Below the pieces are notes generated by a model. It had not been told where the DNA came from. It did not search any database and saw nothing but the letters and a program-made list of their open reading frames with translations. A stretch of DNA of 64,000 nucleotides. Source: Candidatus Omnitrophota bacterium. Its GTDB lineage: Bacteria > Omnitrophota > Gorgyraeia > Zapsychrales > Zapsychraceae. The stretch spans positions 233,386 to 297,385 of the forward strand of contig JADFXT010000001.1 of the NCBI GenBank assembly GCA_015233405.1, in the 5' to 3' direction. The translations under genes and the position numbers were made by a program. Below are positions 9,259 through 52,781 of the stretch, in pieces; within the stretch, counting starts at the first letter, position 1, and each line of letters starts with the position of its first letter.

Positions 9259-9321
9259 AAGAAGTGGAACAGGAATGATAAATTTGTAATTGGGGAGCAA
9301 TGCCGTTTTAGAAAGTATTTT

Positions 9322-24900: not shown

Positions 24901-27900
24901 TTCAGGATTCGCCGTGACTCCGGAAGAATTAAAGAAGAAAGTTCATGGAGGTAAAATTTCTAATCACTCCATGCTGTATGTCAATGGTGAGAATATTTAT
25001 TTAAATAATCTGGACCTTGACGGGACTTTGATCATCAAAGCGAGAGACGACCAAGAATTAACTATTAATAATTTGAAAGTCGTCAATGAAGGCTATGCCA
25101 TTGTGCCGGTTACGATGGCAGATCAAGGGCTTGAAGAATATATCTCCATGCGAGGATATCAGCTAGACCAGCATGGAAAGATCAAAATGATCGATATTAC
25201 CGACCGTCCTGCCGGGTCTTATGTGATCAATAGTGACGGGGAAATTAAAAAGGCTGATCAGGCGATGATGACAGAGCAAGAAGCGATGACTGAATTATCG
25301 GCGATTGAGCAAGCTGTAACGAATGGAAAATTAGAGGATATGACTCAAAGAATCATGGATTTAGGTGACGCGCTCAATGATTCTCCGAAGAGTTTTAAGG
25401 ACTATGACAATTTTAAAGATTTTATGATCCGTAAACTGGAAGCCGCGGAAAAAATAGCTGCAGCAGCTTTAGGAAATGAGGCTCTCAAAAATCAGATTGT
25501 TCAGGACACACTCGAGAAAATCAAGAGAAAATTGGGAGCTGACAAGCCGGGGAATATTGAAGGACAGGCAGATTTTAATAAGATAAAGAAAAATTTAAGT
25601 GTATGGCTTGATGCGGCCAATAATATTCCGGCGTATATCCGTCAGGGGATCATCAAAGCCATGTTGGAAGGTCGCATAGCGGATATTATGGATTCTTATA
25701 TTTCTCAAATTGAATTTGGAACGGCGGGTGTTCGAGGTACCGTGCTTAATTCCAAATATGATTTCATCGTCAAACATGAAATGCGAAAATTCCAGAAAGA
25801 TCCTCGGGCCGTCGTCTTAACCGGTCCGGCGAATTACAATATTGTCACGACCATCGAACAAACACTGGCTTTGGTCAAACTGACGAAATCTTTACAGGAT
25901 CTTCTTACCAAAAATCCTAATGATGAAAGAATAAAGAAATTAGATCCCGAATACATTCAGGCGTTAAAAAACAATCGCTTTACGATTTCCTATGACAGCC
26001 GTATTAATGGGGAATACTTTGGAAAAATCATTGCTGCCGTCGGGATTCTAAATGGAATTAATATCGATATGTTTGACAGTCCTTCTGGGGTTCCTGCTCT
26101 TGTCTGGGCGGCGAATGGCGAAGGATTTGGCATATTGGATGACGGAGGTTCCATTTTCGGGATCCTGAATTCCGCATCTCACAGCGAATATAACTATAAC
26201 GGATTTAAATCTTTTCTGGCGTATCTTATGGCGCAGGTCGACGCCTATTCCAAAAAACTGATTAAAGAGGCGCGTAAAGGTGTTGTTTTGTCTGAGATGC
26301 CTTTTCATTTATTAGAAGGAAATTGGCGGGCTAATGTGGAAGATGTCTTTAAATCCGCCAACAAATATAATGCCGAATTGCGATGGCTCGGTCATAAAGA
26401 TGCTCAGGCCGGTCTGGAATATTTAGACAAACATCTCGTGGATTTTTATACGACGTATTTTCAATTAGTCCGTTCCAAGGCTATCTCGGAAAAATATCTT
26501 TCTGCTGAAGAAAGAGCAAAAGCCTTGGCAGCTAGAGGTGATGTTACTATAAGATTTAGCGCGTTTTCAGGTGTTGGCGCGGAATTCGCCAGGACCCTCG
26601 ATAAAGATGGTCAAGACATTCTTGTTGAAGCAGGGAATTTTCCTAAATTTTTCAGAGACTCCGGCTTTACGAATTTACGGACTGTCGCGAAATACACCAA
26701 AATCATGGACGGTATGTTTGATGGATTCGAGGCCCCGGACCCAGGCATTCCGAAAGGATGGTATGCGGTCGCGCTCGCTTCCTTATTAGAGGAAGCCGGT
26801 GAGGATTTTGAAAATATCGAAGCCGCCGTCAACAAATTTAATGAAGAGGACCTTTGGGAAGGCGTTGATCCCGACGTCGATCGTTACGGCGGGGCCATTA
26901 AACTGCCTGCGGGAGTGAAAGGAAACATTAAAGCTGGTTTTATCAAGATCGTTGAGAATTATATTAATTCCTTAAAGATTGATGACGCCGCTAAGGCCGC
27001 AATGAAGCAAAGGGTCTTCGCTGCGTTGGAAAAAATGAACGATAAGCTGTTATTAACGGCCAACGAAGCTTGGACCATGTTGATTTTTTATTCGCTATCG
27101 ATAGCGCATCAAAATGGCAAATTGGACAAAAACACCCTTTATACCATTGAAAAATCCCATGTCACCACCGACGGACTTCAGCGTGTCGCCAAATATTTCC
27201 GCGCTTTGGGATATAAAATCTATGTCATCGACACCTGGGTTGGATTTACCGAGCTAGGTGCTACGGCTCGGTTGGCTTTCGATCTTGCCAAAGGTGGGGT
27301 TCAGAAGAATGCCGTTGCGATGAAGGAAGCCTTAGCCAAATTAAAAGCCATGAATCCGGAGGAATATGTTGATCCCAGCAATCCGGAAGATACGTTTTAT
27401 AAATTTGTCCAAAGGACCATTGACCTTCTGGAGAAATCTTTAGCGAGGACGCTTTCTTCAGATGAGAACGCAACCTTACTGAGTAATTTAGAGGCGTTAT
27501 CAAAGATTGAGAACATCGCCGGCGTTGAAGAAAGTAACGGCTATGGAGAAATGGGCAAGCTGGATGCGAAGACATTAAAGATCGTCGACAAACATATCAG
27601 CGACAAAGACGGCGGGCTTGCTGGATTTAAATTTGCCGACCTTTTGGCTATTGGTAAGTCCAGGGGCAAAGATCCTTACGATATGTATCAGGACGTCATT
27701 CGGGAGCTCGGACAAGTCAGTACCTTTAATAATCAAATTCGCTATGCGGGTTTTGAAGGTACCAAACAGAAATTCGGTACCATGGAAACCCTGGAAAAAT
27801 ATTTCTTGTTGGCGATCCAGCAGCGGTTGGACAAAGGAGAGGATGTTTATCTCTTTAATGGACGCTATAAAGTTAAGAGTTTAGTCACTTATCGGGCGTT

Positions 27901-29059
27901 TAAATATGACAAATTTTATCGGGGTCTTCCTGAAGAAGGAACCCGGTTATACGTGGAAGTCCGTGATGCTAGTGGCAAAAATTTAGGTGATGCTATTATT
28001 ACTTACAGGCCGTCAGGAACCGGCGACAGCAATCGTGTTTACAACTGGTTTCTGGGTGTTAAACCAAAGGCCGATGAAAACTTTGACGATTATTTTAGAC
28101 GGAATAATGATATTGTGGCGAATTTAAACAAGGATTTCTTTGGGGTGGACGCGGATATCGAGCAAGATTTTAAAACCGGAGACGTTTCTGGTTATGTGGA
28201 CCGCCCAGTCAATGAGTTTTATGGATTGGCGTTCGCTATTAAAGAGGCGTTCCGTCGAGGTTATACGCGAGCGCAGTCTGCGGGGGCTTTTGAGGAAATC
28301 CGAATCCCGTTGGCCAAGGCGTTGGGAGAAAGCACTCCGATCACTTTTAGTCCGGGCTTGGAAAATTTGATCGCGGCTGTCAAAGCTTATACGTTCGCGG
28401 ATCGCCTGGAACAGAATTGGGACAGGATGAGCTCGACTGAACGAAAAGAAAATTTGGATATTTTTGAAAATGCCAGAGCGAGAAATTTCCAGGAATGGCA
28501 GACGTATCTGGACAGTCCTGAGTTTAAAGAATATTTAGCTCAGACGAAAGATACGAATAAAATTACCATTACTTTCGGGCTGGAAGGAAAAACGCAGACC
28601 ATTCAAATCCCCAAAGCCGTTGTCATGGGATTAAAAACTGGACTGGCGGATTATCTTATTCAAGCGTTGGAAAAAGCAGGAGTAGATCTTCCGGCAGTTG
28701 TTAAGGAGGATAGTTATCTTCAGTCCAATGACGGAGAAATCGTGCGCATGGTCAGAAGCCGCATTGAGGAAGGCTGGCCAGCTGACAATGCTCTTATGGT
28801 ACAAACGAATGATTCAGCTAACCGTGACAAGGCCATGGCGATCGATCCAGTCGGTGGTATTGACCTTAATTCCAGTTATTTGGATATGCAGATCAAGCGG
28901 GATAATAATGGTGTGCCGCTGCCTTTAAAGATGCAGCCGCTACAAAATATGCATATTGAAGGGTTTGTTCCGGTCATTATCAACATTACGCCGGTCGAGA
29001 ATTTCCCGGCGCTGTTGGGGGTTAATGAAGAAAAGGAAAAGCCTGAAAAGCTCAGTTAA
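21983..29059 (+). CDS. Giant modular protein 1 (2358 aa): signal/anchor + shared N-domain + UDP-sugar pyrophosphorylase module + phosphohexomutase module + shared C-module
   Basis: Uninterrupted 7.1-kb ORF; AGGAGG RBS; enzyme motifs listed in the sub-features; paralogous ends with ORF 42302-50158. Confidence 0.9.
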   Translation: MMNFIRESKRGTMYRIFSAFIAFSFMLSSIIPASYGQIAPLQAINLPIPGQIVTQSSAYAPAIVKGITINPKNPLQFDFLVDSGENNLQGQALKEESQRLVKYFLTSLTVSEKDLWVNLSPYEKDRIIPENFSQTEMGRDLLAQDYILKQLTSSLMYPEKQIGKDFWARVYEKAQKEFHTTDIPTDTFHKIWIVPNKAVVYEKDNSAFVLEAHLKVMLEEDYEALKANSNKANAQTSEKNLVTTQIIKDILVPEIEKEINTGKNFASLRQIYNSMILAAWFKRTLKESLLSKVYVNQSKMKGIDGVTPQIKEGIYNQYLAAFKKGVYNYIREEYNSETQEVIPRKYFSGGFDPKSIFIETDPTLTVATPKTVDSTMLKEARKIAGIISDVKVNLADAGPAANVGLATAKKDKAMTTANAALIEADKNSGLFSDAQKKAFDVLSQIGESELVDAFYALNPTPEQKKAFLDTVLKLNRLYPGGLDEYLRKGKDLLTKAEKNINPMEGYTDPTQPPVEDFTDMNSPYFKDMTAVGLKTVNKTIFAMPAGGLGTRLGFNGPTKLAIILDLLVMKMYIEDYAEKILALQKRSNAINGEKQEIPLVLMTSDSNHTGTIKLLTEKNNLGMNGLTVLDAAKGDHVIFDNVRQKLIVYDGNNQEKGELKQIVIFKQEDVASMKGYDGRLYIDAKKKNIATAPHNHGDIHLLMYQTGLAQAYKDAGKKETMFFQDTNGEVFNGVLPILGAVVTKKYKMGFSVFGLKAGDKVGVMARMKNPQGKDVVLNVEYNQQEAVLTPFGKKIEDFKGNINNFVIDQEEYAKILDRIKGVVLNSELVNPKPDTKVSRLETPMQDISREVDGADVGLMLFAPQFNFAATKNDLSNAILATAKGLFSEYMASTEGVHALNARKLFSAAGVDIDVNGEVKYAYERAEGYKAQFGEKGTRILGLPGEEKKDIGPIKKEAIVRGVPYLSAAKIAFASGFAVTPEELKKKVHGGKISNHSMLYVNGENIYLNNLDLDGTLIIKARDDQELTINNLKVVNEGYAIVPVTMADQGLEEYISMRGYQLDQHGKIKMIDITDRPAGSYVINSDGEIKKADQAMMTEQEAMTELSAIEQAVTNGKLEDMTQRIMDLGDALNDSPKSFKDYDNFKDFMIRKLEAAEKIAAAALGNEALKNQIVQDTLEKIKRKLGADKPGNIEGQADFNKIKKNLSVWLDAANNIPAYIRQGIIKAMLEGRIADIMDSYISQIEFGTAGVRGTVLNSKYDFIVKHEMRKFQKDPRAVVLTGPANYNIVTTIEQTLALVKLTKSLQDLLTKNPNDERIKKLDPEYIQALKNNRFTISYDSRINGEYFGKIIAAVGILNGINIDMFDSPSGVPALVWAANGEGFGILDDGGSIFGILNSASHSEYNYNGFKSFLAYLMAQVDAYSKKLIKEARKGVVLSEMPFHLLEGNWRANVEDVFKSANKYNAELRWLGHKDAQAGLEYLDKHLVDFYTTYFQLVRSKAISEKYLSAEERAKALAARGDVTIRFSAFSGVGAEFARTLDKDGQDILVEAGNFPKFFRDSGFTNLRTVAKYTKIMDGMFDGFEAPDPGIPKGWYAVALASLLEEAGEDFENIEAAVNKFNEEDLWEGVDPDVDRYGGAIKLPAGVKGNIKAGFIKIVENYINSLKIDDAAKAAMKQRVFAALEKMNDKLLLTANEAWTMLIFYSLSIAHQNGKLDKNTLYTIEKSHVTTDGLQRVAKYFRALGYKIYVIDTWVGFTELGATARLAFDLAKGGVQKNAVAMKEALAKLKAMNPEEYVDPSNPEDTFYKFVQRTIDLLEKSLARTLSSDENATLLSNLEALSKIENIAGVEESNGYGEMGKLDAKTLKIVDKHISDKDGGLAGFKFADLLAIGKSRGKDPYDMYQDVIRELGQVSTFNNQIRYAGFEGTKQKFGTMETLEKYFLLAIQQRLDKGEDVYLFNGRYKVKSLVTYRAFKYDKFYRGLPEEGTRLYVEVRDASGKNLGDAIITYRPSGTGDSNRVYNWFLGVKPKADENFDDYFRRNNDIVANLNKDFFGVDADIEQDFKTGDVSGYVDRPVNEFYGLAFAIKEAFRRGYTRAQSAGAFEEIRIPLAKALGESTPITFSPGLENLIAAVKAYTFADRLEQNWDRMSSTERKENLDIFENARARNFQEWQTYLDSPEFKEYLAQTKDTNKITITFGLEGKTQTIQIPKAVVMGLKTGLADYLIQALEKAGVDLPAVVKEDSYLQSNDGEIVRMVRSRIEEGWPADNALMVQTNDSANRDKAMAIDPVGGIDLNSSYLDMQIKRDNNGVPLPLKMQPLQNMHIEGFVPVIINITPVENFPALLGVNEEKEKPEKLS
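22100..23063 (+). other. Shared N-domain of giant ORF1 (unknown function)
   Basis: Aligns by eye with ORF2 N-domain (DLWVNLSPYEK, AQDYILKQLT.SLMYPEK.IGKDFW, TTDIPTDTF, AHLKVMLEEDY, KYFSGG). Confidence 0.8.
23290..25200 (+). other. UDP-sugar pyrophosphorylase (USP, UDPGP family) module in giant ORF1
   Basis: End-to-end resemblance to plant/trypanosomatid USP as I recall it: LNRLYPGGL..Y..GK.LL, AGGLGTRLGFNG, APHNHGDIH, FFQDTNG, LNVEYNQ, C-terminal beta-helix-like NIYLNNLDLDGTLII. Confidence 0.8.
25600..28150 (+). other. alpha-D-phosphohexomutase (PGM/PMM-like) module in giant ORF1, with large insertions
   Basis: All four family loops present: FGTAGVRG and active-site SASHSEYNYNGFK; metal loop DPDVDR; sugar loop GVEESNG; phosphate loop RPSGTGDSNRVY. 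Confidence 0.75.
28826..29056 (+). other. Shared C-terminal module of giant ORF1
   Basis: DKAM..GGIDLN ... GFVPVIINITP..FPALLG; aligns with the ORF2 C-terminus. Confidence 0.8.
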
Positions 29060-31981: not shown

Positions 31982-33499
31982 ATGAATTCCATCCTCAATT
32001 CTTCCCAACTTAAAGCTGTCGAATATCAAGGTGGGCATTTGCTTATTGTCGCTGGGCCGGGGACCGGGAAAACACATACGCTGACCTATCGAATAGCGCA
32101 AACGGCCAAAGGCCTTCAGGCATCTGAAAAGATATTGGCGATCACATTTACGAATAAAGCGGCAGAGGAAATGCGCAGCCGGCTCCTTAATATCGTCGAG
32201 AATATTGATCAGGTTTTGATGGTCGGAACGTTTCACCAATTTTGTTTGTATTTGTTAAAAGGAAATATTTCTCAGACGACGTTATCGCCGCAATTTCAGA
32301 TCGCGACGGAGGAGGATATTAAGGCGCTTAGTAAGGATATTTGGCCTGAGTTAAAGTCTAGAGAAATTAAAAATAAGCTTGAGGCGATATCCCGACGGAA
32401 AGCGCAAGGGCCGTCGGTAGAAGAAGGCAAAGACACGATTCTTTATAATAATTGTCTTCGGAAAAAAGGATTTTTGGATTTTGACGATCTTCTGTGCGAA
32501 ACGGTAAAATTGCTTCAAGAAAAACTGGCTATTTTAACGCAGATCCAAAAGTTTTTTCCGTATATCTTCGTCGATGAATATCAGGACATCAATCCCTGCC
32601 AGCATGAACTTTTAAAGCTTTTGGTTGGCGAAGGAGTTTCTATCACGGCCATCGGTGACCCGAACCAGGCGATCTATGGCTTTCGCGGCGCGGATGTTAG
32701 ATTTTTTCAAAGTTTCGCTGATGATTTTCAAGGGGCGACCACAATATATTTGTCTGAGAATTACCGCTCGGCCCAAAATTTGCTTTCAGCGTCGGGTCAA
32801 GTGATGGCGCAGCTTAAAGATTTTCCGGTCCCGGAATTAACCACACGAATATATTCCGAAGGCCAGTTGATCATTCATGAAAGCCCGACGGAAAAAGCGG
32901 AAAGTGAGTTTGTCGTTCATCAAATCGAGAAAATGGTCGGCGGGACGAGCATGTTTTCCAAAGATTCAGGCCGGGTGGAGACTCATGAAGCGGAGAATAG
33001 AAGTTTTGGCGATATTGCGGTCTTGTGCCGGCTAAAAGTCCAATTAAACGCTCTAAAAGAAGCGTTCGAGCGAAGCGGCATTCCTTATGAAATGCCGAAA
33101 AGTCGGGAGGAAGAATTTATCGACCATCCTGACATGGCGCGTGTGCGAGAGTTGTATGAAAAAAGCGAACGGGTGCAATTGATGACGCTTCACGCGGCCA
33201 AGGGGCTGGAGTTCCCGGTTGTCTTTATCGTCGGATGTGAGGAAAACCTCTTGCCGCTTCATCTCGATGGATTAGATTGCGACGATAACGAAGAGCGCCG
33301 GCTTTCTTATGTCGGGATGACGCGGGCTAAAGAAAAACTTTATTGTATATATGCAAAACAACGGTTTCTGTTCGGAAAAAGTATGCGTAATGCCATTTCA
33401 CCATTCGTTTTGGATATCGAAGAAAAGCTAAAACAGTACGAAAAAACAGAATTTAAATTTAAGAAAGAGAAGGAAGAGAAACAATTGGATTTGTTTTAA
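31982..33499 (+). CDS. UvrD/PcrA-family SF1 DNA helicase (short form)
   Basis: AGPGTGKT, TFTNKAAEEM, VDEYQD, GDPNQAIYGFRGA, LHAAKGLEFPVVF, VGMTRAK. Confidence 0.85.
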   Translation: MNSILNSSQLKAVEYQGGHLLIVAGPGTGKTHTLTYRIAQTAKGLQASEKILAITFTNKAAEEMRSRLLNIVENIDQVLMVGTFHQFCLYLLKGNISQTTLSPQFQIATEEDIKALSKDIWPELKSREIKNKLEAISRRKAQGPSVEEGKDTILYNNCLRKKGFLDFDDLLCETVKLLQEKLAILTQIQKFFPYIFVDEYQDINPCQHELLKLLVGEGVSITAIGDPNQAIYGFRGADVRFFQSFADDFQGATTIYLSENYRSAQNLLSASGQVMAQLKDFPVPELTTRIYSEGQLIIHESPTEKAESEFVVHQIEKMVGGTSMFSKDSGRVETHEAENRSFGDIAVLCRLKVQLNALKEAFERSGIPYEMPKSREEEFIDHPDMARVRELYEKSERVQLMTLHAAKGLEFPVVFIVGCEENLLPLHLDGLDCDDNEERRLSYVGMTRAKEKLYCIYAKQRFLFGKSMRNAISPFVLDIEEKLKQYEKTEFKFKKEKEEKQLDLF

Positions 33500-33657: not shown

Positions 33658-33664
33658 AAGGATT

Positions 33665-33813: not shown

Positions 33814-35145
33814 ATGCAAATGCCCGACGAAGTCAAAAGCCAATACGATATTGATTTTAATCAAAAGTTTACGCAGGCCTATGACCTATTGGAAAACACG
33901 AACAAGAATGTTTTCATTACGGGTAAGGCCGGCACGGGCAAATCGACTCTTTTGAAATATTTTCGCGATCATACGCTGAAAAATGTCGTGGTCCTTGCTC
34001 CGACGGGAGTTGCGGCCGTCAATGTCCAGGGCCAAACCATTCATTCGTTCTTCCGTTTTAAGCCGGACATCACTCCCAAGACCGTCGATACGATCAAGAT
34101 GCGCCGAAACCAGAAAGTGTTGTATGAGAAAATAAATACCCTTATTATCGACGAGATTTCTATGGTCCGTGCGGACCTTTTAGATTGCGTGGATGCCTTC
34201 TTAAGGCTTCACGGGCCTTATCCCGAGGAGCCGTTTGGCGGCGTCCAGATGGTCTTCTTCGGCGATTTGTACCAATTGCCGCCGGTCGTCACCATGGAAG
34301 ATAAAAAGATTTTTGAAGGCCTTTATGCAAGCCCGTATTTTTTTGACGCCAAGGCTTATCAGGGTTTGAACCTTGAATTTATCGAGTTCGACAAGATCTA
34401 CCGTCAGAAAGAAGAGGATTTTATTAGGCTGTTGGGTGCAATTCGTAACCGTCATGCGACCGAAGCCCATTTAAAAGAGCTCAATAGCCGGGTCAATCCG
34501 TCGTTTCAGCCCAATGAGAATGAGTTCTATATTTATCTGACGACGACGAATGCCATTGCCGAGCGTATTAATCAGCAGCACCTGTTACAGTTAAAGACGC
34601 GAAGCTATCATTATGATGGTGAAGTAATGGGCAAGTTTGATGAGAAAAGTTTGCCGACGTATTCCTCTCTGGATTTAAAGTGGGGGGCGCAGGTCATGCT
34701 TTTAAATAATGACCCTCAAGGGCGATGGGTCAATGGCAGCATCGGGAAGGTCATTTCTGCGGATGAAAGTTCCTCCATGATCCAAGTCCAGCTTTCCGGC
34801 GGAAAGGTCGTGGATGTGGAGCCTTTTACGTGGGAGATGTTCCGTTTCTTTTACGATGAGGAAACGGAGCGGGTCGAATCAGAATCCGTCGGATCATTCC
34901 GGCAGTATCCGCTTAAACTGGCATGGGCGGTGACGATCCATAAAAGTCAGGGGCAGTCATTCTCGAAAGTGGTCGTCGATATCGGATACGGCACGTTCGC
35001 CCACGGTCAGGCGTATGTGGCATTAAGCCGCTGTACGAGTTTCGACGGGTTGGTGCTTCTTCGGCCTATCCGCAAAGAGCATATACTTTTAGATAATCGT
35101 GTGGTAGAATTCATGGAAAAAATTAATCAAAATCCTATCCGGTAG
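33814..35145 (+). CDS. Pif1/RecD-like SF1B helicase (AAA_30-type)
   Basis: GKAGTGKST, IIDEISMV, GDLYQLPPV, WAVTIHKSQG, ALSRCTS. Confidence 0.8.
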   Translation: MQMPDEVKSQYDIDFNQKFTQAYDLLENTNKNVFITGKAGTGKSTLLKYFRDHTLKNVVVLAPTGVAAVNVQGQTIHSFFRFKPDITPKTVDTIKMRRNQKVLYEKINTLIIDEISMVRADLLDCVDAFLRLHGPYPEEPFGGVQMVFFGDLYQLPPVVTMEDKKIFEGLYASPYFFDAKAYQGLNLEFIEFDKIYRQKEEDFIRLLGAIRNRHATEAHLKELNSRVNPSFQPNENEFYIYLTTTNAIAERINQQHLLQLKTRSYHYDGEVMGKFDEKSLPTYSSLDLKWGAQVMLLNNDPQGRWVNGSIGKVISADESSSMIQVQLSGGKVVDVEPFTWEMFRFFYDEETERVESESVGSFRQYPLKLAWAVTIHKSQGQSFSKVVVDIGYGTFAHGQAYVALSRCTSFDGLVLLRPIRKEHILLDNRVVEFMEKINQNPIR

Positions 35146-39290: not shown

Positions 39291-39359
39291 GTGGATTCCC
39301 GCCTGCGCGGGAATGATAGAAAGGGGTGTCATCCCCGCAATCTTTAAGCGGGGATCCAG
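39291..39359. repeat. MITE/REP-like palindromic element, copy 7 (arms in swapped order)
   Basis: GTGGATTCCCGCCTGCGCGGGAATGATA 39291-39318; GTCATCCCCGCAATCTTTAAGCGGGGATCCAG 39328-39359. Confidence 0.85.
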
Positions 39360-42301: not shown

Positions 42302-45300
42302 ATGGAATTTGTTCTACCCAAAAGACAAAAGAATATGTTCATTAAGATCGTGTCGACAATTCTCTCGATCACGTTCATTTCCACAACGGCCGTACCGCCG
42401 AGCTATGCACAAGTTATGAACTTGCCGCAGCCGGGCAGCATGGTGGGCCTCACGCCAGCATTTATGCCTACGCTGATCAAGGGGCTAAAAGTCCATCCGG
42501 AGAATCCGCTTTTATTCGATTTTATCCTCGATACTGGAAAATCTGGCATTGCGGTCAATACTCCTGAATTTAAAGCCGAATCCGAAAAACTCATCAAATA
42601 TTTCCTAGCGTCCATGACGATCAAAGAATCCGACCTTTGGGTTAACTTATCTCCGTACGAAAAGAACAGAATTGCAACTGATGAATTAGGTAAAACAGAG
42701 CTTGGCCGTGACATGCTCGCGCAAGATTATATTCTCAAACAGCTCACGGCCTCGCTTATGTATCCAGAAAAGGAAATCGGGAAAGATTTTTGGAATAAAG
42801 TTTACGCTGAAGCGAAACAGAAATTTGGAACTACTGATATTCCTACGGACACGTTTAATAAAGTCTGGATCGTCGCTGATAAGGCAACGGTATTTGAGCG
42901 GGAAGTCGCTGTCCCGACGCCAGGAGGGTCGGGACTCCGGGCTCTCAAGGAGCCCGTCGCGTACGTCGTCGGAGCTCATTTAAAAGTAATGTTGGAAGAG
43001 GATTATGTGGCAGCCAGTAAAGCTTCTTCCGGTCATTCCACAATCTCCCCATTGTCATCCCCGCAATCTTTAAGCGGGGATCCAGCAGTGGATTCCCGCC
43101 TTCGCGGGAATGACAGAATTTCTTCTGTTATCCGTCAAATCATCCTCCCGGCAATCGAAAAAGAAGTCAACGAAGGAAAGAACTTCGCGACGTTAAGACA
43201 GATGTTCTATTCGATGATTCTAGCTACTTGGTATAAACAAGCCTTGAAAGATGCACTTTTAAATCAGGTCTACAGCGATAAAGCCAAAATTGGCGGAGTT
43301 ACAAATAACGACCCAGCTATTAAAGAGAAGATTTACGCCCAGTATTTGGAAGCATTCAAGAAAGGTGCTTACAACTATATTAAGGAAGAATATGATCCCG
43401 CGACGCAGCAGGTAACTCCTAAGAAATATTTCTCCGGCGGTCTTGAAATTGGCGTCGGAAAAGTCCTTGCCCGTCAAGCTATTCAAACTCCGGAAACTGA
43501 TAGCGCTATGGCTCCCAACGGCGACATGGCCATGGTTTCGACGAGATTAGCAACGACCTTGGCGGCCATTGGCCTTGGGGCAACTCTTTTAGTTGGCGGT
43601 TTTTATTATCACGGCGCTACTCAAAGCCAGATTTGGGAAAAATCCAAGAGCAAAGCAGACATTGTTTCTATCGAAAAATATCATCAGCAAAGAGACCGTA
43701 TGGGTTTAAAGGTCATATCGAAAAAGGCTGAGGCGCGTTATCAAAAGATCATACGCGAGATTCAAAGAGCAAGAGAACAAAAGGCCAAAACTGTCGGAAA
43801 TGAAACCAATGACAAGATCGCCTTGGCAGAGAAATATTCTGTCTTTGATCAATTTACTGAAACTTATGCCGATCTTGCGGAGAATGATGTGGATGATAAT
43901 CCGGCGCAACGTATGGGTGGAAATGTGCCGTCGGCTTGGAAAACCCGTCTGGGTTCTCAGGAGCGGGACGCGGTCGAGACGGGAAGAGAAGGAATATTAG
44001 CGTTGACGTTAAATAATCTATCGAATGAAATTGGGATACAGCTGCGTTTAATTAATGTTGAGAAAAAACATATTAATCAATTTAAAAAAGTGGCGCCGAC
44101 TTTCTTTAAAGGAGAAATGGGCACGGATATTGGGAAGGTTGATTCATCGCTTACGAATTATTTCGTCAATGAAAACACTACAGAAACCCAAATGCTCAAT
44201 GATTACACCTTTCGCCAGCGTGATCGCGTCAATAAGATGCTTTATAAAACAAACGCCTCTTATCATTGGCATTCAGATCATTTTAGCGGCCTGTCAAATT
44301 TTCATCAGAAAAAATTATCTCCGGCCATCCAGAGCGCGGATAAAATTGTAAAGTATATTAAATCCATGCAGAGCAATAAAAGTTTGGAAACGATGAATCT
44401 GGGATTAGCAACCATGCACATGGCTGATGTTGAAATGGAGACGGACCAGGACGGGCATATGACAACGAAAATTGTGAATAATAGCGGGCCTTATCTGGCC
44501 TTAGCAGCTACATTTGCCGCCGCGGCCTCCGTTGATGCTCATAATGCAAATAAAGAAGCTGCAAGATTAAAGAATTTGCTTCCATTGTTCATGAATGACC
44601 CGCTGTTTCAGCAAGAGAATTTGCAAGGACCATTTGCCAATTTAAACTGGAAGGACCAAGCCTCGGGAATCTTGCATCCCATTTTGGATTTCGTTTTGCC
44701 GCCGACCTTTAGTTTGATAGGAAATATATTTAGTGATAATGGAAGCACCGGACTTCAAACTATTGAACCGGTTCGCCAAGCGCTTCATACTTCCGAAGCG
44801 TCAATCACCCCGCGGATTAATGTGGAACATAAATGGATAGATGGTCAGATTGACACGGAAATATCCCGTCAGATAGAGGAAGAAAAAGCCGTTTCTTTAT
44901 TCGGTAATGACTACGCCATGACGACAAGTGATTTAGAAACGTTTGTTGGTACCGTTAATAATCTTCCGGACTCTGTCAAGCAGAAAATAGGCACGAATAT
45001 AAATATTTTTCTTAAAGGCAAATCCGGAGTGAGAACGGATAAAGCCATGATGAGTGCTATTAAGGAAACGATCGATGACCTTCAAAAGAGGCTCCCTTCT
45101 GAGGAACAATTAAATATCCTTGTTCAACAGCACCAAATTACTGAAAGCCAGAGAGCAGATTATAAGAAGTTAATACAATTGATTGAACAGCTTTCTAAGG
45201 TAGACGAGGAAAAAATTTGGGAATCGATAGAATCCAAGGGATATACACGCGCTGATTTTGAGGCCCTTGTTAAAGATTTAGGTTCCGTGATTGCAAATTA

Positions 45301-48300
45301 TGAACCGAAGGGATTAGGTATAAAAGACATTCGCAAGTACAAAACACAATTGAGCAACAACATGTTATTCAGCCTTACCGTGATTTTAATCATGTATGTG
45401 TCTTTGGTGTCTCCTGCCATTCAGTATGATTTTAAGGGCTTTTGGATGATATCCGGAAGTTTAGGTTTGGTTGTGACCTTAATAAACGCCGGTTTAGTAA
45501 TAAAAAATGTGAGGAAATGGTTTTTCATCGACAAGCTTTCTTCCGACGACCAAGCCATGACAACGGTATTATCTCCTGACATGGATTTTACGACGGCGCG
45601 GCAGGAATTTTTTACAGCCTTAGAAAAGAAATTTGTTCCGGAATTAAATCGGAAAGCGGCGTATGAGTTGCTGACGGATTTGCGTAGCTATCTTTTGGAG
45701 CATCAGGCTTCGCCAAGTTTAATTCCGTTGATGGACGGCATTCATGCTGATTTGACCAAAAGATACACGGACATTAATGAGGGCCGCTTTGGAAAATTTG
45801 ACACGGATATTCAGCACACAAAAAGCGCAGATATGGTCATGCAGATGGTCGGGGAACTCATAGGGATGCAAGTTGTCCTGGCTCATAATAGAGAACGCTT
45901 AAGCTCTAACCGTGGTCTCGCCGAGCAAATCGGACAGGAACTTATTAAAGAGCTTCCCGCCGAGAATCCGCTTAAAAGTGCTATTGATAACAAAGAATTT
46001 ACCGAAGAAGAGGCAGTAAGCGCGCTACGAGATGTGTTCATAAGCCGGGCGCGTTTGGTTGATCAAACAGCGTCTATCAAAGAGTTACCGGCATCTGTCC
46101 AAGCGCTTGCGTGGCTTAAGAATCCGGATTCTCGTCCAGATACCATTCGTTTGAATACTTTAAAAGGGAAAACCATTTTGGTTACTGGCGGATCTGGTTA
46201 TGTCTCTGCGGGCGTTATCCATGATATTTTAGCGCAAGGCGCGAAAGCGATCATTTATGACAACTCTATCCGCGACCGTGAAGAAATGGGAAAACTCCCG
46301 GGAGTGACTGTTATCGACGGAGGAATTGACAATCAGGCGAAAATGGAACAGATCATGCGCGACAATAAAGTCGACGCGGTCGTCCATTTAGGCGGATATA
46401 TCGCTGCGGGTGAATCCATGAAATTCCCGGCAAAATATTTCAACAATAACATTCGAAATACCGTCACATTACTGGCGGCCATGAGCAATACGAACGTCAA
46501 GAATTTGGTGTTCGCATCCAGCGCCGGAGTTTATAGCGGAAAAGAATTTAACAAAGACGGGGTTTTGGACGAGACCATGAGACCCGACCCCCAGAACGCT
46601 TATGGGACGACGAAGTATGGGATGGAAATGATGATGAGGGAATATAGCGAGAAGTTAGGAATTAAAATGGTGGCCTTACGATTCTTTAATGTGGCCGGCG
46701 CGTTTAAATGGGGCAATACCTGGTATGGGGAAAATCACGAAGGCCCGGAAACGCATCTGATCCCGCGCGTCATGAAGGCGTTTTTGTATCCGGATAAAAT
46801 TCAGTTTAAGATCTTTGGAACGGATTATGATACTGTCGACGGGACCGCAGTCCGCGATTATATTCAAGTCCAGGATCTGGCTGACGCCCATATGCGGGCC
46901 TTGGCGCATTTATTCGACAACGGAACAAATAAAATTTTAAATCTTGGAACAGGCGAAGGCTATTCGGTCAAGGAAGTTGTAACGCAAATACAGGCCTTGA
47001 TCAAGAAGGAAACCGGCAAGGACTTTCAGGTCGGGGTCGCTGGCCGACGGGCAGGTGACCCGGCGGAGCTGAAGGCGAGCGGCAAAAAGGCTTTTGGTGA
47101 GTTGCATTGGAAGGCCGCGCATGGTTTGGAATCCACTATCGCAAGCGCATGGGCTTTTCATATTCAGGAAAAGGCCTTGGGGCGTCTGAACCATGATGCT
47201 CTGGCGCCGGAAAGCAAACTGCCGCAGAGTGAAGTGGAATTTATGGACGGGTTCCTTAAGGAGCTTTCTTCTAATACTGTTATTTCTTCCGATATCAAAT
47301 TGGAATTTTTCTTCCGTCTGTTCGCCTATTCGCTGAACGCGGAATTTAAAGGCGGCGAAAGAAAGTATATTTCCGACGAAGACGCTATTTATCAGCGTGC
47401 TGGCGAAATTCAATCGGATAAAAGAGGCGTTGTGCCAACGCTCGCGGTGGACCAGGATTTTCGTAATCAGCTTGCGGCGTATCAAGAGAAGATCAAAAGT
47501 GAACAATCCCCAATTTATCAACAGCGCTCGGCATATCTCTCGACGATCTTTGAGCTGTTAAAGAATACAGACAAGGCGATGGCGACAGCACAAACCAAAG
47601 ATGTTTCAGATGCCACAATCGAAACAGCAGTGGAAACCATAAAAAAAGATTTCTTTGCTAAGGCCAATCTGACGCCGAAGGAAAAAGATTTCTTTAAAAT
47701 ATATTTTATATCCGAATTTACAACAGCGCTCAAAGTTGCCGTTAAAAAGGGGATCTTTACTAGCAATTTTGTCAATGTCTCCGTAGGAAAATATTATACC
47801 GCCGATTTAAGTTATGCGGACGCTGCAAAAATCATAGCCATTAAATTGCGCGAAGGCTTTGGCGAACATAATATCAACAAAGAAATTTTTGTTTCGACCT
47901 ATCAGCTTTTGTCTGATATTGACAAAGCTATGACGACGGGTATGTCGGACGAGATGAAGAAACAGGTGGATGCCTTAGATGACCCAAGGGCCAAGAAAGC
48001 TTTAACGCTAGTGTTTACCAACGCCATAGAATGGGCAGATGCTTTTAAAAGACATGCTTTGACAGAAATGAGAAATCGGAAGATTAACCTTGAATGGGTT
48101 TATGGTCCTTATGTCAATTATGTAAATTTAGTCCAGACTCCGCTGTCGATCAGCGAGATCGAGGACATGGCAACGAATTATGTCTATAGAAAAGACAAGG
48201 CGATGATGTCCGATGATGATCCGTGGTATTACGGACCGGAAGCGGATTCTTCTAACTATCTTTCCAATGACGAGTTTTATGGAGATAAACCTCCAGACAC

Positions 48301-50158
48301 GTTGTATCATTCAACTGAATCTTTAGATGATTTCTTCCAGAAGCCTTTTGAAGTAGAGAGGAAAAGAGCCGCAAGATTGATCGCGGTCAAGGAAATGGAA
48401 CAGAAACGGTCGCTCATTCCGATATTGGGATACGCGGCCATTGATCTTTATAATCAGGCGACTGAGTCCAATGTCTCGAGCCAGGAATTCTCGACGGAAC
48501 CGAACGTTCAGTTTAAAGTCTTAGCTTGGGTGAAAGAAAAATATAATCTTAAGAGCCTTCCGATGGCGATGGACCTGACCTTAGAGCATGAATCCATCAT
48601 CTTAAATAATGTGACGGACGAAGGCCGTGTAACGCTACAGAAAGATGAGGAGAAGAACATCCGGTTCATCAATGGAAAAGAGACCTTGATTGATTTTAAA
48701 GGATCCGGACGACCAGAGTTGAACTTGACGCTTAAACGCGCGGGCATTGATTGGAACAAGCTAAAACCATTTGATCCTAAGCAAGCGGCTCGCTTTCAGG
48801 TCGCTGCGGCAGCTCTGGCTAAGTTTAAGGAAAAATTCCCCACATCGCCGACCATGGCGTTTGCCATTTCTCCGTATACGCTGGTGTCTCATCTTTTAGG
48901 CGATGAGGCATTTGTGGGACTTTTGAGCGATACCGACGAGTTTAAGGCGGTCTTTGCATACGCCAAACAATATATTAAAGATTATGTGAAATATATGGCT
49001 GAAGTCGGTAAGGCGGATTCCGTCATGTTTCTCGACCCTGTCCCGACGGGAACGATGTCTCCGGATATGTTTGAGTCCTATGCGGTCGAGCCTATTAATG
49101 AGATTGCGGATTATGCCCGTTCGCTTGGGCTTGTGGTGGGCGCGCATCCGTGCCGTCCTCAGAATGATGCGATGGCTAAGCAACTTTTGCCTAAGTTTGC
49201 TCAATATAAGGTCGACCTTTTAAGCATCGACAGTATCTATAATCTGCGCGAGGTTTATGATTATATTCAAGCAAACGTTCCGGAAAAAGATCGGCCGGTT
49301 TTAATAGGGAATGTGGATACGATCGAGACGTTGCCTCAAGGCTCGCCGGAAAAAGTAACGAGCGAGGTTTCGCAGATCTTTAAGACCATGGGCAATGCGC
49401 CTTTTATTCTTTGCTCGAGCTGTGATATTTTGTCCATTACCAAAGAGAATATGACCGCACTTTATCAGACGGCAAAGAAAGAAGCCGAACCGTTTGACAA
49501 GGCGATGAGTGTGGCGACAAGCGAAACACGGGAAATTAAACTAGAAAATGATTTAGGAATGCATTTTAAACCTGCCAATGCGATTTCGCGAGCAGCGGAA
49601 ACATTTTACAAGCAAGGCATCGTCGTCATAATTGAAAAAGATGATGACATGGTTCGTTTGGACAATTCTAATATGAATGTCATGAGATTATTGTCTTTGG
49701 GAATATCACAAATAAAACCGGTGAAAGTGACCATAGAAAGTGAAGACTTTTTATCTTCCGAGGAAATTGATTTCGTATTCGCCATGTTAAAAGAATTGTT
49801 CCAAAGTAAACAATTACTGGAAGCCCCGGAACATGGGAATGACGCTTCGGCTGCTTATTCAGCAAAGATAAATAGGTTTTTTGAACAGCAGAAAAGAAAC
49901 GAACTTGATGAGGCGATGACGACAAAAGCCCCCGGCGGTATTGACTTAAACGCCAAGAATTTGAAGATGGACGTGTCGAAGGACGGGAAAGGCGTTGAAT
50001 TTAAATTCGACCCGGCCATGGTCGCGGAATTCCAGAAAGGGAATTTTACCGGTGTCGTGCCGGTCATTATCCGTATCACACCGATTGAAAGCCCGTTTCC
50101 GTTGTTGGGATTAGAAGTTCCGACGGAACAAGCGATAGAGATAACGAAAAAATCGTAA
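42302..50158 (+). CDS. Giant modular protein 2 (2618 aa): signal/anchor + shared N-domain + TM-containing modules + UDP-glucose 4-epimerase + URO-D-like + HPr-like + shared C-module
   Basis: Uninterrupted 7.9-kb ORF; AAGGAG RBS; enzyme motifs in sub-features; ends paralogous to ORF 21983-29059. Confidence 0.9.
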   Translation: MEFVLPKRQKNMFIKIVSTILSITFISTTAVPPSYAQVMNLPQPGSMVGLTPAFMPTLIKGLKVHPENPLLFDFILDTGKSGIAVNTPEFKAESEKLIKYFLASMTIKESDLWVNLSPYEKNRIATDELGKTELGRDMLAQDYILKQLTASLMYPEKEIGKDFWNKVYAEAKQKFGTTDIPTDTFNKVWIVADKATVFEREVAVPTPGGSGLRALKEPVAYVVGAHLKVMLEEDYVAASKASSGHSTISPLSSPQSLSGDPAVDSRLRGNDRISSVIRQIILPAIEKEVNEGKNFATLRQMFYSMILATWYKQALKDALLNQVYSDKAKIGGVTNNDPAIKEKIYAQYLEAFKKGAYNYIKEEYDPATQQVTPKKYFSGGLEIGVGKVLARQAIQTPETDSAMAPNGDMAMVSTRLATTLAAIGLGATLLVGGFYYHGATQSQIWEKSKSKADIVSIEKYHQQRDRMGLKVISKKAEARYQKIIREIQRAREQKAKTVGNETNDKIALAEKYSVFDQFTETYADLAENDVDDNPAQRMGGNVPSAWKTRLGSQERDAVETGREGILALTLNNLSNEIGIQLRLINVEKKHINQFKKVAPTFFKGEMGTDIGKVDSSLTNYFVNENTTETQMLNDYTFRQRDRVNKMLYKTNASYHWHSDHFSGLSNFHQKKLSPAIQSADKIVKYIKSMQSNKSLETMNLGLATMHMADVEMETDQDGHMTTKIVNNSGPYLALAATFAAAASVDAHNANKEAARLKNLLPLFMNDPLFQQENLQGPFANLNWKDQASGILHPILDFVLPPTFSLIGNIFSDNGSTGLQTIEPVRQALHTSEASITPRINVEHKWIDGQIDTEISRQIEEEKAVSLFGNDYAMTTSDLETFVGTVNNLPDSVKQKIGTNINIFLKGKSGVRTDKAMMSAIKETIDDLQKRLPSEEQLNILVQQHQITESQRADYKKLIQLIEQLSKVDEEKIWESIESKGYTRADFEALVKDLGSVIANYEPKGLGIKDIRKYKTQLSNNMLFSLTVILIMYVSLVSPAIQYDFKGFWMISGSLGLVVTLINAGLVIKNVRKWFFIDKLSSDDQAMTTVLSPDMDFTTARQEFFTALEKKFVPELNRKAAYELLTDLRSYLLEHQASPSLIPLMDGIHADLTKRYTDINEGRFGKFDTDIQHTKSADMVMQMVGELIGMQVVLAHNRERLSSNRGLAEQIGQELIKELPAENPLKSAIDNKEFTEEEAVSALRDVFISRARLVDQTASIKELPASVQALAWLKNPDSRPDTIRLNTLKGKTILVTGGSGYVSAGVIHDILAQGAKAIIYDNSIRDREEMGKLPGVTVIDGGIDNQAKMEQIMRDNKVDAVVHLGGYIAAGESMKFPAKYFNNNIRNTVTLLAAMSNTNVKNLVFASSAGVYSGKEFNKDGVLDETMRPDPQNAYGTTKYGMEMMMREYSEKLGIKMVALRFFNVAGAFKWGNTWYGENHEGPETHLIPRVMKAFLYPDKIQFKIFGTDYDTVDGTAVRDYIQVQDLADAHMRALAHLFDNGTNKILNLGTGEGYSVKEVVTQIQALIKKETGKDFQVGVAGRRAGDPAELKASGKKAFGELHWKAAHGLESTIASAWAFHIQEKALGRLNHDALAPESKLPQSEVEFMDGFLKELSSNTVISSDIKLEFFFRLFAYSLNAEFKGGERKYISDEDAIYQRAGEIQSDKRGVVPTLAVDQDFRNQLAAYQEKIKSEQSPIYQQRSAYLSTIFELLKNTDKAMATAQTKDVSDATIETAVETIKKDFFAKANLTPKEKDFFKIYFISEFTTALKVAVKKGIFTSNFVNVSVGKYYTADLSYADAAKIIAIKLREGFGEHNINKEIFVSTYQLLSDIDKAMTTGMSDEMKKQVDALDDPRAKKALTLVFTNAIEWADAFKRHALTEMRNRKINLEWVYGPYVNYVNLVQTPLSISEIEDMATNYVYRKDKAMMSDDDPWYYGPEADSSNYLSNDEFYGDKPPDTLYHSTESLDDFFQKPFEVERKRAARLIAVKEMEQKRSLIPILGYAAIDLYNQATESNVSSQEFSTEPNVQFKVLAWVKEKYNLKSLPMAMDLTLEHESIILNNVTDEGRVTLQKDEEKNIRFINGKETLIDFKGSGRPELNLTLKRAGIDWNKLKPFDPKQAARFQVAAAALAKFKEKFPTSPTMAFAISPYTLVSHLLGDEAFVGLLSDTDEFKAVFAYAKQYIKDYVKYMAEVGKADSVMFLDPVPTGTMSPDMFESYAVEPINEIADYARSLGLVVGAHPCRPQNDAMAKQLLPKFAQYKVDLLSIDSIYNLREVYDYIQANVPEKDRPVLIGNVDTIETLPQGSPEKVTSEVSQIFKTMGNAPFILCSSCDILSITKENMTALYQTAKKEAEPFDKAMSVATSETREIKLENDLGMHFKPANAISRAAETFYKQGIVVIIEKDDDMVRLDNSNMNVMRLLSLGISQIKPVKVTIESEDFLSSEEIDFVFAMLKELFQSKQLLEAPEHGNDASAAYSAKINRFFEQQKRNELDEAMTTKAPGGIDLNAKNLKMDVSKDGKGVEFKFDPAMVAEFQKGNFTGVVPVIIRITPIESPFPLLGLEVPTEQAIEITKKS
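42413..43450 (+). other. Shared N-domain of giant ORF2 (contains two in-frame palindromic insertions)
   Basis: Aligns by eye with ORF1 N-domain; extra segments at 42905-42956 and 43032-43115. Confidence 0.8.
43032..43115. repeat. MITE/REP-like palindromic element, copy 8, in frame inside giant ORF2
   Basis: GTCATCCCCGCAATCTTTAAGCGGGGATCCAG 43054-43085 and GTGGATTCCCGCCTTCGCGGGAATGACA 43088-43115, partial arm at 43032; 84 nt = 28 codons, translated as ..SPLSSPQSLSGDPAVDSRLRGNDR.. Confidence 0.85.
46166..47170 (+). other. UDP-glucose 4-epimerase (GalE-type SDR) module in giant ORF2
   Basis: ILVTGGSGYVS Rossmann motif, catalytic YGTTKYGME (YxxxK), LRFFNVAGA, DGTAVRDYIQVQDLADAH, RRAGDPAEL. Confidence 0.85.
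48299..49487 (+). other. URO-D / MtaA-like TIM-barrel module in giant ORF2
   Basis: Family-like pattern: FAISPYTLVSHLLGDE, AGKADSVMFLDPV..MSPDMFE, VGAHPC, LIGNVDTIETLPQGSPEKV..EV, ILCSSCDI. Fold-level call only. Confidence 0.5.
49532..49805 (+). other. HPr-like (PTS phosphocarrier fold) module in giant ORF2
   Basis: EIKLENDLGMHFKPANAISRAAETF aligns with the HPr His15 region (GLHxRPA); His codon at 49562-49564; RLLSLGISQIKPVKVTIESED resembles the HPr C-terminal half. Confidence 0.55.
49907..50155 (+). other. Shared C-terminal module of giant ORF2
   Basis: DEAMTT..GGIDLN ... GVVPVIIRITP..FPLLG. Confidence 0.8.
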
Positions 50159-51413: not shown

Positions 51414-52781
51414 ATGAGCAAAGAATTTCTAACAGTCTCGCAGCTGAATGTTCTCATCAAAGATGTCCTTAATATGGGATTTCCCCAGGCCCTTTGGGTC
51501 TGCGGGGAAGTCCAGCAATATAACCGCAGCAAAGGAAAGAAACACGTTTTCTTTCAGCTCGTCGAGAAAGACCCCGTGACGCACGATGTCAAGGCCTGCA
51601 TTGATCTGGTCATCTGGGAAGGCCGGCGAAGTTATATCGAAAGTGTCCTTAAAAAAAGCGAGAATGCCTTTGAGCTCAAGGATGATATTGAAGTCAAATT
51701 TGCCTGCCGGGTTGATTTCTATCCGCCGCATGGAAAAGTCCGTTTGACCGTCGAGGACATTGATCCCACCTATACTTTAGGAAAGATTGCCCAGGAAAAA
51801 CAGCGGCTCATTGCTCTTTTAAAAGAGAAGGGAATCTTAGATAAAAATAAACAGCTTGCTTTGCCATTGGTACCGCTAAACGTCGGGCTTATTACTTCCG
51901 ACGATTCCGCGGCGTATAATGATTTCTGTTCGGAGCTTAAGAAAAGCGGTTTTGCCTTTGAGGTTTCGCTACGCAATACCATTATGCAGGGAAAAAGCTG
52001 CGAGGCGGATGTTTGCCGTGGGCTTGATATCTTAAGTCGCAAAAAAGATTTGGATGTGATTGTCATCACGCGCGGTGGCGGTTCTATTTCGGACTTAAGC
52101 TGTTTTGACAGCCGGTTGATAGCGGAAAAAATTGCTGCCATGGCTCTGCCTGTTCTAAGCGGTATCGGCCATGAGATCGATGTATCGGTGACCGACTTGG
52201 CCGCGCACACGTTTGCCAAGACCCCGACGGCTATCGCGCAGTTTATCGTCAATCAAGTTGCCGAATTTCTTCAATCCTTAGACGAAAAACGGGAAAGGAT
52301 CGTCAGCACTTCGCAGGATATGATTGCCGACGAAAAACAGACATTGAAAGATAGGGCGGTCGATCTGCAAAGCGGGACAACGCGATTTTTAAAGGACCAT
52401 AACGCGAAAATGATCCGTCTGATGGAATTTATCAAGCAGCGTCCGGCGCTGATGATGAAAACTTTTAGCCAAAGGATAGAAGAACAAAGAAAAATTTTTC
52501 AAAAGACGGTCCACCAAAGATTTCAGAAAGATAAGACGAATCTTGAAGGACTGGAAAAGCTGATCGGCGCGTTTCATCCCGCGAGCACATTAAAACGGGG
52601 ATTTTCAATCACCCGACGGGAAGATGGAAAGATATTAAAAGATTTTACGCAAATTAAACTTAATGACACAATCCTGACGGAAGTATTCCGCGGCGAAATT
52701 CAAAGCCGGGTCACAAGCATGACTGACTCACCTAAGGTTGTCATTCCCGGCGGTCCCGCCCAAAAGCGGGATGGTAAGTGA
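51414..52781 (+). CDS. xseA: Exodeoxyribonuclease VII large subunit
   Basis: OB-fold N-terminus (LTVSQLN..IK..L), ITRGGGS and GIGHEID motifs; the last 14 codons lie inside repeat copy 10. Confidence 0.9.
   Translation: MSKEFLTVSQLNVLIKDVLNMGFPQALWVCGEVQQYNRSKGKKHVFFQLVEKDPVTHDVKACIDLVIWEGRRSYIESVLKKSENAFELKDDIEVKFACRVDFYPPHGKVRLTVEDIDPTYTLGKIAQEKQRLIALLKEKGILDKNKQLALPLVPLNVGLITSDDSAAYNDFCSELKKSGFAFEVSLRNTIMQGKSCEADVCRGLDILSRKKDLDVIVITRGGGSISDLSCFDSRLIAEKIAAMALPVLSGIGHEIDVSVTDLAAHTFAKTPTAIAQFIVNQVAEFLQSLDEKRERIVSTSQDMIADEKQTLKDRAVDLQSGTTRFLKDHNAKMIRLMEFIKQRPALMMKTFSQRIEEQRKIFQKTVHQRFQKDKTNLEGLEKLIGAFHPASTLKRGFSITRREDGKILKDFTQIKLNDTILTEVFRGEIQSRVTSMTDSPKVVIPGGPAQKRDGK

Follow-up and report, generated by a model that had tools for sequence, protein, structure and literature searches.

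An in-frame pair of REP units in the N-domain linker of a giant Omnitrophota gene

Two giant reading frames and the repeat block in ORF2

The window analyzed here is a 64,000-nucleotide (64-kb) stretch of the genome of a Candidatus Omnitrophota bacterium (assembly GCA_015233405.1, contig JADFXT010000001.1, positions 233,386 to 297,385 of the forward strand). It contains two paralogous giant open reading frames (ORFs), ORF1 and ORF2 (Table 1). Both ORFs start with a signal or anchor helix that is followed by a conserved domain of ~380 amino acids, the N-domain, and this common part is 48% identical in the two proteins. Beyond the N-domain, Pfam searches identify differing enzyme modules, which in ORF2 are epimerase, URO-D-like, and HPr-like modules. 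The N-domain of ORF2 features an 84-nt block that is composed of two repetitive extragenic palindromic (REP) units in tail-to-tail orientation and is read as part of the protein. The initial annotation of this DNA had described the block as a palindromic repeat inserted in frame, and the sequences, coordinates, and translation that it reported are all present as given. Its central claim agrees with the nucleotide identity of the block to intergenic copies, the open frame of 2618 codons, the collinearity of the homologues, and the location of the block in a loop of the predicted structure, which are described below.

The block occupies positions 43032-43115 and consists of a 22-nt leader, REP unit A on the plus strand, 2 nt, and REP unit B on the minus strand. 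Its neighbours are the sequence AHLKVMLEEDY on one side and the I.P.IEKE block on the other, and at this place the linker of ORF1 is shorter and unrelated. The 28 codons translate without a stop as GHSTISPLSSPQSLSGDPAVDSRLRGNDR, which forms residues 244-272 of ORF2. Unit A is read as SSPQSLSGDP (residues 251-262) and unit B as VDSRLRGND (residues 263-272). Only one of the three forward frames of the block is free of stops, and this is the frame that is used by ORF2. A leader followed by a full unit is also found at the intergenic positions 2557, 16320, and 31823 and in the linker of the homologous gene L001, so that the 84-nt block is a sensible unit to within ~4 nt at its right edge, which could reach ~43118. 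In the mRNA the block is predicted to form two strong hairpins with a folding free energy of -39.1 kcal/mol (z -5.5). A scan with Rfam gave no match at the insert, the sole match in the window being the tRNA gene at 54342-54415, and terminator and promoter scans found neither a terminator-like nor a promoter-like site there. The block is flanked by an imperfect direct repeat of low complexity that agrees at 7 of 8 positions (CTTCTTCCG at 43023-43031 and TTTCTTCTG at 43119-43127), which could be a target-site duplication or a chance occurrence in pyrimidine-rich sequence.

Table 1. Coordinates of the repeat units, their host gene, and related features. Positions without a locus prefix are those of the window.
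Feature	Position	Strand	Description
ORF2, host gene	42302..50158	+	2618 codons, no internal stop (ORF list and translation)
Leader of the block	43032..43053	+	GTCATTCC, then a 14-nt pyrimidine-rich stretch; resembles a half-unit
REP unit A	43054..43085	+	GTCATCCCCGCAATCTTTAAGCGGGGATCCAG; TGTC tag, 8-bp stem ATCCCCGC, 9-nt loop, CCA tail; RNA folding gives a hairpin
REP unit B	43088..43115	-	GTGGATTCCCGCCTTCGCGGGAATGACA; read on the minus strand as TGTC, ATTCCCGC, GAAG, GCGGGAAT, CCA
Second insert	42905..42956	+	~16 extra codons; hairpins 42911-42935 and 42938-42956
ORF1, giant paralogue	21983..29059		2358 codons
ORF1 linker matching the ORF2 insert site	22649..22753	+	35 amino acids, without REP sequence; 11-residue coil between the equivalent two helices in the ORF1 model
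Intergenic head-to-head REP dimer	39291..39359	+	unit B variant, then unit A, 9 nt apart; closest relative of ORF2 unit A
Intergenic composite	2557..2708	+	leader, unit(+), spacer, unit(-); closest relative of ORF2 unit B (2573-2602, 30/30)
In-frame units in homologous giant genes	L001:6232-6254, 6706-6728; L077:4202-4224, 4927-4954; L070:4673-4695, 8031-8053; L009:3944-3966; L059:3484-3506		
SHQSSDVSHQ...TTEDRRLTT linkers	L019:4214-4336, L064:4658-4789, L075:4637-4756, L082:4660-4745		
D[KQE]AM[TM][TS] copies, ORF1	23213-23230, 25256-25273, 28826-28843		
D[KQE]AM[TM][TS] copies, ORF2	43499-43540, 44909-44926, 45038-45055, 45548-45565, 47570-47587, 47921-47938, 48194-48211, 49496-49513, 49907-49924		

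Source of the block and its place in the N-domain

The units that make up the block are also found outside of genes. The 32-nt unit A has an exact second copy at 39328-39359 and a copy with 3 mismatches at 33714-33745, where shuffled sequences lead one to expect 0. Unit B has 9 further copies in the window with at most 3 mismatches, all of which are intergenic or at doubtful ORF edges, and none was found in shuffled sequence. A blastn search of the ORF2 linker against all of the fetched sequence gave its best matches within the same genome, 33/33 to 39327-39359, a count that includes the T preceding unit A, and 30/30 to the composite at 2557..2708. A wider pattern search returned 24 matches in the window, which correspond to ~21 distinct units with the common form TGTC, AT(T/C)CC-stem, loop, stem-GG(A/G)AT, CCA(G). 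With the exception of the copy in ORF2, these units are intergenic, lie in a doubtful 5' extension of a MurG ORF, or are located at the end of the ORF 51414..52781, and several of them are arranged as unit(+)/unit(-) pairs. The initial annotation had noted that both arms of the block recur at 39291-39359. Both are present there, however, they occur in the opposite order and head to head, and the unit B copy at 39291 has 2 differences from that of ORF2, so that the ORF2 block is not a straight copy of this dimer.

Some of the other units in the window touch coding sequence or stand close together. The exonuclease VII large-subunit ORF 51414..52781 owes its final 13 codons and its stop (..VVIPGGPAQKRDGK*) to a REP-like unit at 52740-52805, and a REP is thus translated at a second site of the window. 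The REP at 9231-9258 lies within the TTG-started MurG ORF 9202..10398, in which the Pfam domain starts at residue 43 and an ATG is found near 9323, so that this REP is probably upstream of the true start. Four REPs cluster at 33523-33745, with a UvrD-like helicase (31982..33499) on one side and a PIF1-like helicase (33814..35145) on the other; two of these units have a 4-nt loop, a third has a loop of 9 nt, and the fourth is a variant with a long stem.

The N-domain belongs to a family with at least 1568 Omnitrophota protein matches in a protein search. It was compared across 120 proteins and 80 gene copies that were read at the DNA level, which together give ~200 homologues. These homologues are collinear with ORF2 on either side of the insert, and the linker between KVMLEEDY and IIREIIIPEIEKEVN is hypervariable in both length and sequence across the family. 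The nearest relatives of ORF2 (61-62% identity) have a linker without REP sequence. Because no closer orthologue was found, the family alignment stands in for an empty site, and by this comparison both inserts of ORF2, the block and a second insert described below, are derived. The initial annotation had treated ORF1 and ORF2 as a before/after comparison. The absence of a REP from ORF1 was borne out, however, with 48% identity and a linker that cannot be aligned ORF1 is not a true 'before' state, and it is the wider family alignment that does this job. The identity of the block to these copies extends over all codon positions, whereas the surrounding domain retains only ~50-60% protein identity among homologues, which indicates an origin within the genome. 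This points to an insertion event that was recent or to a block that has been kept uniform by exchange among the repeats.

AlphaFold models of the N-domains of ORF2 and ORF1, with mean predicted local distance difference test (pLDDT) values of 77 and 76, show an identical order of secondary structure elements. A beta-hairpin (strands 188-203 and 216-231 with a 12-residue loop in ORF2; strands 191-203 and 206-218 with a 2-residue turn in ORF1) is followed by a first helix (232-242 in ORF2, 219-227 in ORF1), a coil (243-263, with pLDDT below 50 at 246-260, in ORF2; 228-238 in ORF1), and a second helix (264-291 in ORF2, 239-261 in ORF1). AlphaFold places the REP-encoded residues 244-272 in the low-confidence coil between the two helices and the residues of the second insert, 202-219, at the tip of the beta-hairpin, which they extend. 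Both inserts are thus predicted to map to connecting loops, a location that had been raised as a check in the initial annotation and that would be expected for tolerated insertions. A Foldseek search of the model of the N-domain (42302-43489), a domain that is very abundant in Omnitrophota, against the PDB gave no significant match to a solved structure (best E = 0.05).

The second insert of ORF2 is GC-rich. The region that spans it, 42905-42962, has 72% G+C as compared with 42.5% for the rest of the N-domain, and the sequence 42895-42970 folds as two hairpins with a free energy of -38.7 kcal/mol (z -2.4). The hairpin arms are GTCCCGAC at 42911 and GTCGGGAC at 42928, and CGGGCTC at 42938 and GAGCCCG at 42950. 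At this position 80 of 82 gene copies have 21 or 23 residues, and the other two are ORF2 with 37 and L036 with 34. Further inserts were found there in P0080/L082, which features a nested double hairpin with the same EV.VPT peptide start and a GTTCCGAC stem, and in P0039/L083. Its sequence is a derived palindromic one, and the 16 extra residues and two hairpins of the initial annotation were confirmed. The claim of a repeat-element origin fared less well. Within the window the stem-plus-tail motif, GTCCCGAC..GTCGGGAC-T(C/G)CGGGC, is found nowhere else, and the status of the second insert as a mobile palindromic element is therefore weakly supported. In 683 kb of sequence the motif has two further occurrences, both of which are inside N-domain genes; L046 carries the motif in its main linker. 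It is also found in 9 metagenome contigs, 5 with 39-42% G+C, 3 with 68-73%, and 1 with 60%; the 5 low-GC contigs have no long open frame across the match, and the matches in the contigs of 60-73% G+C may be due to chance. The recurrence of the motif is suggestive, short of naming a repeat family.

Other features are common to the giant ORFs. A D[KQE]AM[TM][TS] motif recurs at the borders of the enzyme modules of both and looks like a junction or processing motif. Its final copy always lies 9 residues ahead of a homologous C-terminal domain of ~70 amino acids (GGIDLN...FxGxVPVIIxITP) that ends both ORF1 (28853-29059) and ORF2 (49934-50158), and the middle regions of the two proteins are unrelated.

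Recurrence in the same linker and possible explanations

REP units in this linker are not limited to ORF2 and were found in 8 other Omnitrophota genes (L001, L002, L010, L047, L048, L057, L070, and L077), and inserts of a similar kind were counted in five independent assemblies. A single forward unit that is read as VIPAKAGIQ is present in L001, where a leader precedes it, in L047 and L070, and, in a decayed state, in L077. A forward and a reverse unit separated by a spacer are read as SSP..GND, as in ORF2, in L002, L010, L048, and L057, with varying unit types and spacers of ~10 to 26 nt. The linker REPs are therefore read in at least two frames, and the SSP-type peptide frame recurs in five genes because the other forward frames hold stops. 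A neighbour-joining tree of the domain without the linker places the dimer-bearing genes in at least 4 separate clades and the single-unit genes in one clade with L077 apart, and about five clades are counted overall.

A census of unique REP units in 683 kb, based on greedy ORF calls, counted 11 units in the N-domain linkers (~6.9 kb), 6-7 in other loops of N-domain genes (codons ~72-77, 313-317, 345, and 1344), 2 in all other genes, and 19-24 in non-coding or doubtful sequence (~52 kb). REPs are denser in the linker than in the remainder of the N-domain genes (odds ratio (OR) 74, p = 2e-14) and denser than in non-coding DNA (OR 3.5, p = 0.002), both values being uncorrected for shared ancestry. 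N-domain genes hold 17-18 of the ~20 intragenic units, with an OR of 10.5 against other genes. When linkers were compared with the REP consensus, 11 of 80 scored above shuffled sequences, as did 2 of 79 control segments. REPs are thus a recurrent source of linker sequence and not the general one, and the suggestion that the majority of linkers derive from decayed REPs lacks support as a general rule.

Several observations were made on the same family of linkers and loops. Homologous giant genes can carry two or three in-frame REP units per gene, which extend beyond the linker to N-domain loops at codons ~72-77, 313-317, and 345 (Table 1). A different peptide, PTRGHVPEGAVSPSRLP / ..VSPSTLPSELGLN.., is common to the same linker in L009:3542-3706, L044:4640-4834, and L053:4628-4810 and in P0012, P0031, P0072, and P0102, and its presence in scattered members suggests another repeat family that uses the linker. 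Several genes have in common the linker peptide SHQSSDVSHQ...TTEDRRLTT, the coding sequence of which is a long palindrome with imperfections (GTCATCAGACGTCAG...CTGACGACTGATGAC).

The block in ORF2 is very probably a tolerated in-frame REP dimer that came from the genome's own repeat pool, passed a filter of frame and stops, and resides in a disordered loop without a required function. A tail-to-tail REP pair of the CGTC-1/NTS type, together with its leader, would have joined the coding sequence of ORF2 from the intergenic copies of the genome, either by insertion or by copying from another repeat, and it would have landed in the N-domain, in an unstructured linker that joins two helices. The block would have survived because its length keeps the frame and because it came to lie in the one phase of that strand that has no stop. 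It would now be translated as ~28 residues of disordered loop, most likely as a tolerated selfish or neutral passenger and not as a functional module, and the linker would act as a permissive sink in which related Omnitrophota genes took up REP units independently.

Several points weigh against this explanation. Neutrality is assumed, and the two stable mRNA hairpins could have an effect. The independence of the events depends on a neighbour-joining tree without support values, and the enrichment statistics ignore shared ancestry and rest on crude gene calls. A Pfam search of 22 window ORFs found no transposase gene, and neither that search nor a six-frame motif search of the window and the fetched loci found a GIY-YIG ORF, so that a mechanism of movement is left unsupported. 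Additionally, a protein search and a genome scan found no closer orthologue or strain variant of ORF2. The best N-domain relatives are 59-62% identical by local alignment and up to 66% in the multiple alignment, and the genome scan reached 62%; with 62-66% identity at best an empty site is not available for comparison, and where exactly the insert begins and ends is uncertain.

Other explanations share some of this evidence. The linker could be targeted or functionally exploited, with the hairpins being kept as boundaries for an Ssn-type nuclease or for recombination when N-terminal modules are swapped, or as fresh sequence for a surface loop. This would be in line with the REP density above that of non-coding DNA, the concentration of intragenic units in N-domain genes, the genes with two or three in-frame units, and an analogy to the NTS hairpins of Neisseria, which are single-strand targets of SsnA that shape recombination tracts. 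However, the window and the fetched loci yielded no Ssn-like gene, recognizable REP sequence is present in only ~11% of the linkers, and the tolerance of long disordered loops explains the pattern equally, which leaves targeting or functional use of this linker quite unlikely. A broader proposal, that NTS-type REPs are drawn to or retained in N-domain loops, where their repeated insertion and decay would be a main origin of new loop sequence or where they would serve as nuclease or recombination boundaries for the exchange of modules among paralogues, is also regarded as unlikely.

Dispersed REPs can mislead assemblers, and repeat-containing reads may have been joined into the gene. Such an artefact is very improbable, since the insert is flanked on either side by a collinear and complete protein alignment, the length of the insert preserves the frame across 2618 codons, and like inserts are found at the same site in independent assemblies (L001, L002, L010, L048, L057, and L070). 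Selection for a peptide motif (SSP..SGDP..RGND) that yields REP-like DNA by convergence would be consistent with the same peptide frame in five genes, although this recurrence is explained by the stops in the other frames. The match to intergenic copies is exact down to each nucleotide, also at synonymous positions, and the repeat that other homologues carry at this site is read in a different frame, as VIPAKAGIQ. Exact nucleotide identity combined with the use of two frames excludes convergence at the peptide level, and we give it next to no credence.

Comparison with known repeat systems

[quoted passage not shown] The block resembles a REPIN in that two inverted REP units lie close together and may be able to fold as one larger hairpin. 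It differs in that its tag is TGTC/CGTC and not GTAG, the two units are unlike in stem and loop, and a RAYT (Y1 transposase) gene was not seen; the REPIN/RAYT label was rejected on the basis of the TGTC tag and the lack of a Y1_Tnp match among the 22 window ORFs searched with Pfam. The initial annotation had called the element MITE/REP-like. The REP half of this label holds, however, the MITE half does not because the block consists of separate hairpin units that lack terminal inverted repeats and a clear target-site duplication.

The units fit the CGTC-1 class, which is defined by a CGTC tag (TGTC or CCTC also being accepted), an 8-bp stem that opens with A-T pairs, a loop of 4 nt, and a CCA tail (Di Nocera, De Gregorio & Rocco 2013, BMC Genomics 14:522, PMC3733652). 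All full units of the window, the two of ORF2 among them, have the tag TGTC (T before GTC). The stems of unit B (ATTCCCGC/GCGGGAAT) and unit A (ATCCCCGC/GCGGGGAT) are 8 bp long with A-T pairs at positions 1 and 2, and both units finish in ..AT followed by CCA. The loop of unit B is GAAG (4 nt) and that of unit A is AATCTTTAA (9 nt). Unit B has all 4 of the features and unit A has all except the loop length, which is outside of the stated range of 4-5 nt for CGTC-1, families with other loop lengths also being noted (PMC3733652). The dispersal expected of the class is seen in the ~21 distinct units of the window, which are mainly intergenic and several of which are paired. By these sequence features the block is a tail-to-tail heterodimer of CGTC-1 REPs of the NTS/dRS3 type with a leader. 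CGTC-1 has been equated with the Neisseria dRS3 and the Rickettsia RPE-6 elements, RPE-4 has also been classed as a CGTC REP, and no dedicated transposase is known for CGTC REPs (PMC3733652).

The Neisseria NTS consensus is CGTCATTCCCGCGMAVGCGGGAATCYRG (Nat Commun 2025;16:2388, PMC11893778), and the window unit TGTCATTCCCGCGAAGGCGGGAATCCAG differs from it at one position. There are 8 copies in the window with at most 2 mismatches to this consensus, where 0 are expected, and one of these is ORF2 unit B (2 mismatches). In Neisseria the NTS repeats flank genes and are cut by SsnA as single-stranded DNA during transformation, which shapes recombination tracts; Ssn is a small GIY-YIG (cd10448) nuclease that is usually flanked by the repeats (PMC11893778). 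The present window differs from Neisseria in that no Ssn homologue was found in it, and a term search of PMC11893778 found no mention of intragenic or within-gene repeats.

The Rickettsia palindromic elements (RPEs) are palindromic repeats that occur in frame in functional genes and are translated (Ogata et al. 2000 Science 290:347, as summarized in PMC10969869 and PMC3733652). The comparison with RPEs that was made in the initial annotation is apt, since the ORF2 block is a palindromic in-frame insert in an intact ORF, is absent from homologues, and is located in a loop of the predicted fold. The classic RPE-1 is described in these summaries as ~150 bp long with a conserved peptide of ~45 amino acids, whereas the ORF2 block is 84 nt and is made from units of 26-32 nt. 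The hosts also differ, as RPEs are found in obligate intracellular bacteria with reduced genomes and the Omnitrophota host belongs to a free-living or episymbiotic environmental lineage. A relation of the block to RPEs at the level of the repeat class is likely, because RPE-6 has been equated with CGTC-1. A literature search on RPE surface loops gave nothing useful. The multi-enzyme giant proteins have been described in recent papers on Omnitrophota, and a term search of one of these papers found no mention of palindromic elements.

In-frame REP/RPE insertion is already established in Rickettsia and a few other bacteria, and in-frame REP dimers that encode 20-30 amino acids as well as genes with two inserts have been documented (PMC3733652). 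The intragenic REPs described by Di Nocera et al. resemble the ORF2 block in that they belong to the CGTC-1 class, can form an in-frame dimer of 20-30 amino acids, keep the gene open, and can occur as two inserts per gene. That survey did not cover the Omnitrophota or the N-domain protein family, and the new elements are this phylum and, as the host family, the anchor domain of its multi-enzyme giant proteins. The similarity of a window unit to the Neisseria NTS consensus is also new and raises the question of the role of such sites inside genes. VIPAKAGIQ, SFPRKRES, and DSRLRGND can serve as annotation markers of such events in conserved proteins. The same repeat class in one loop, in several genomes and two frames, provides a natural replicate series that can be used to ask whether the insertions are tolerated or targeted and how fast repeat DNA becomes an ordinary loop. 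The ORF2 dimer differs from the CGTC dimers of Di Nocera et al. in its tail-to-tail arrangement, which is rare for CGTC, and in being a heterodimer that includes a unit with a 9-nt loop and is preceded by a leader. The family differs as well, in that one loop has been colonized repeatedly across paralogues, whereas in the 2013 survey insertion at the same site was described for Xanthomonas recB only.

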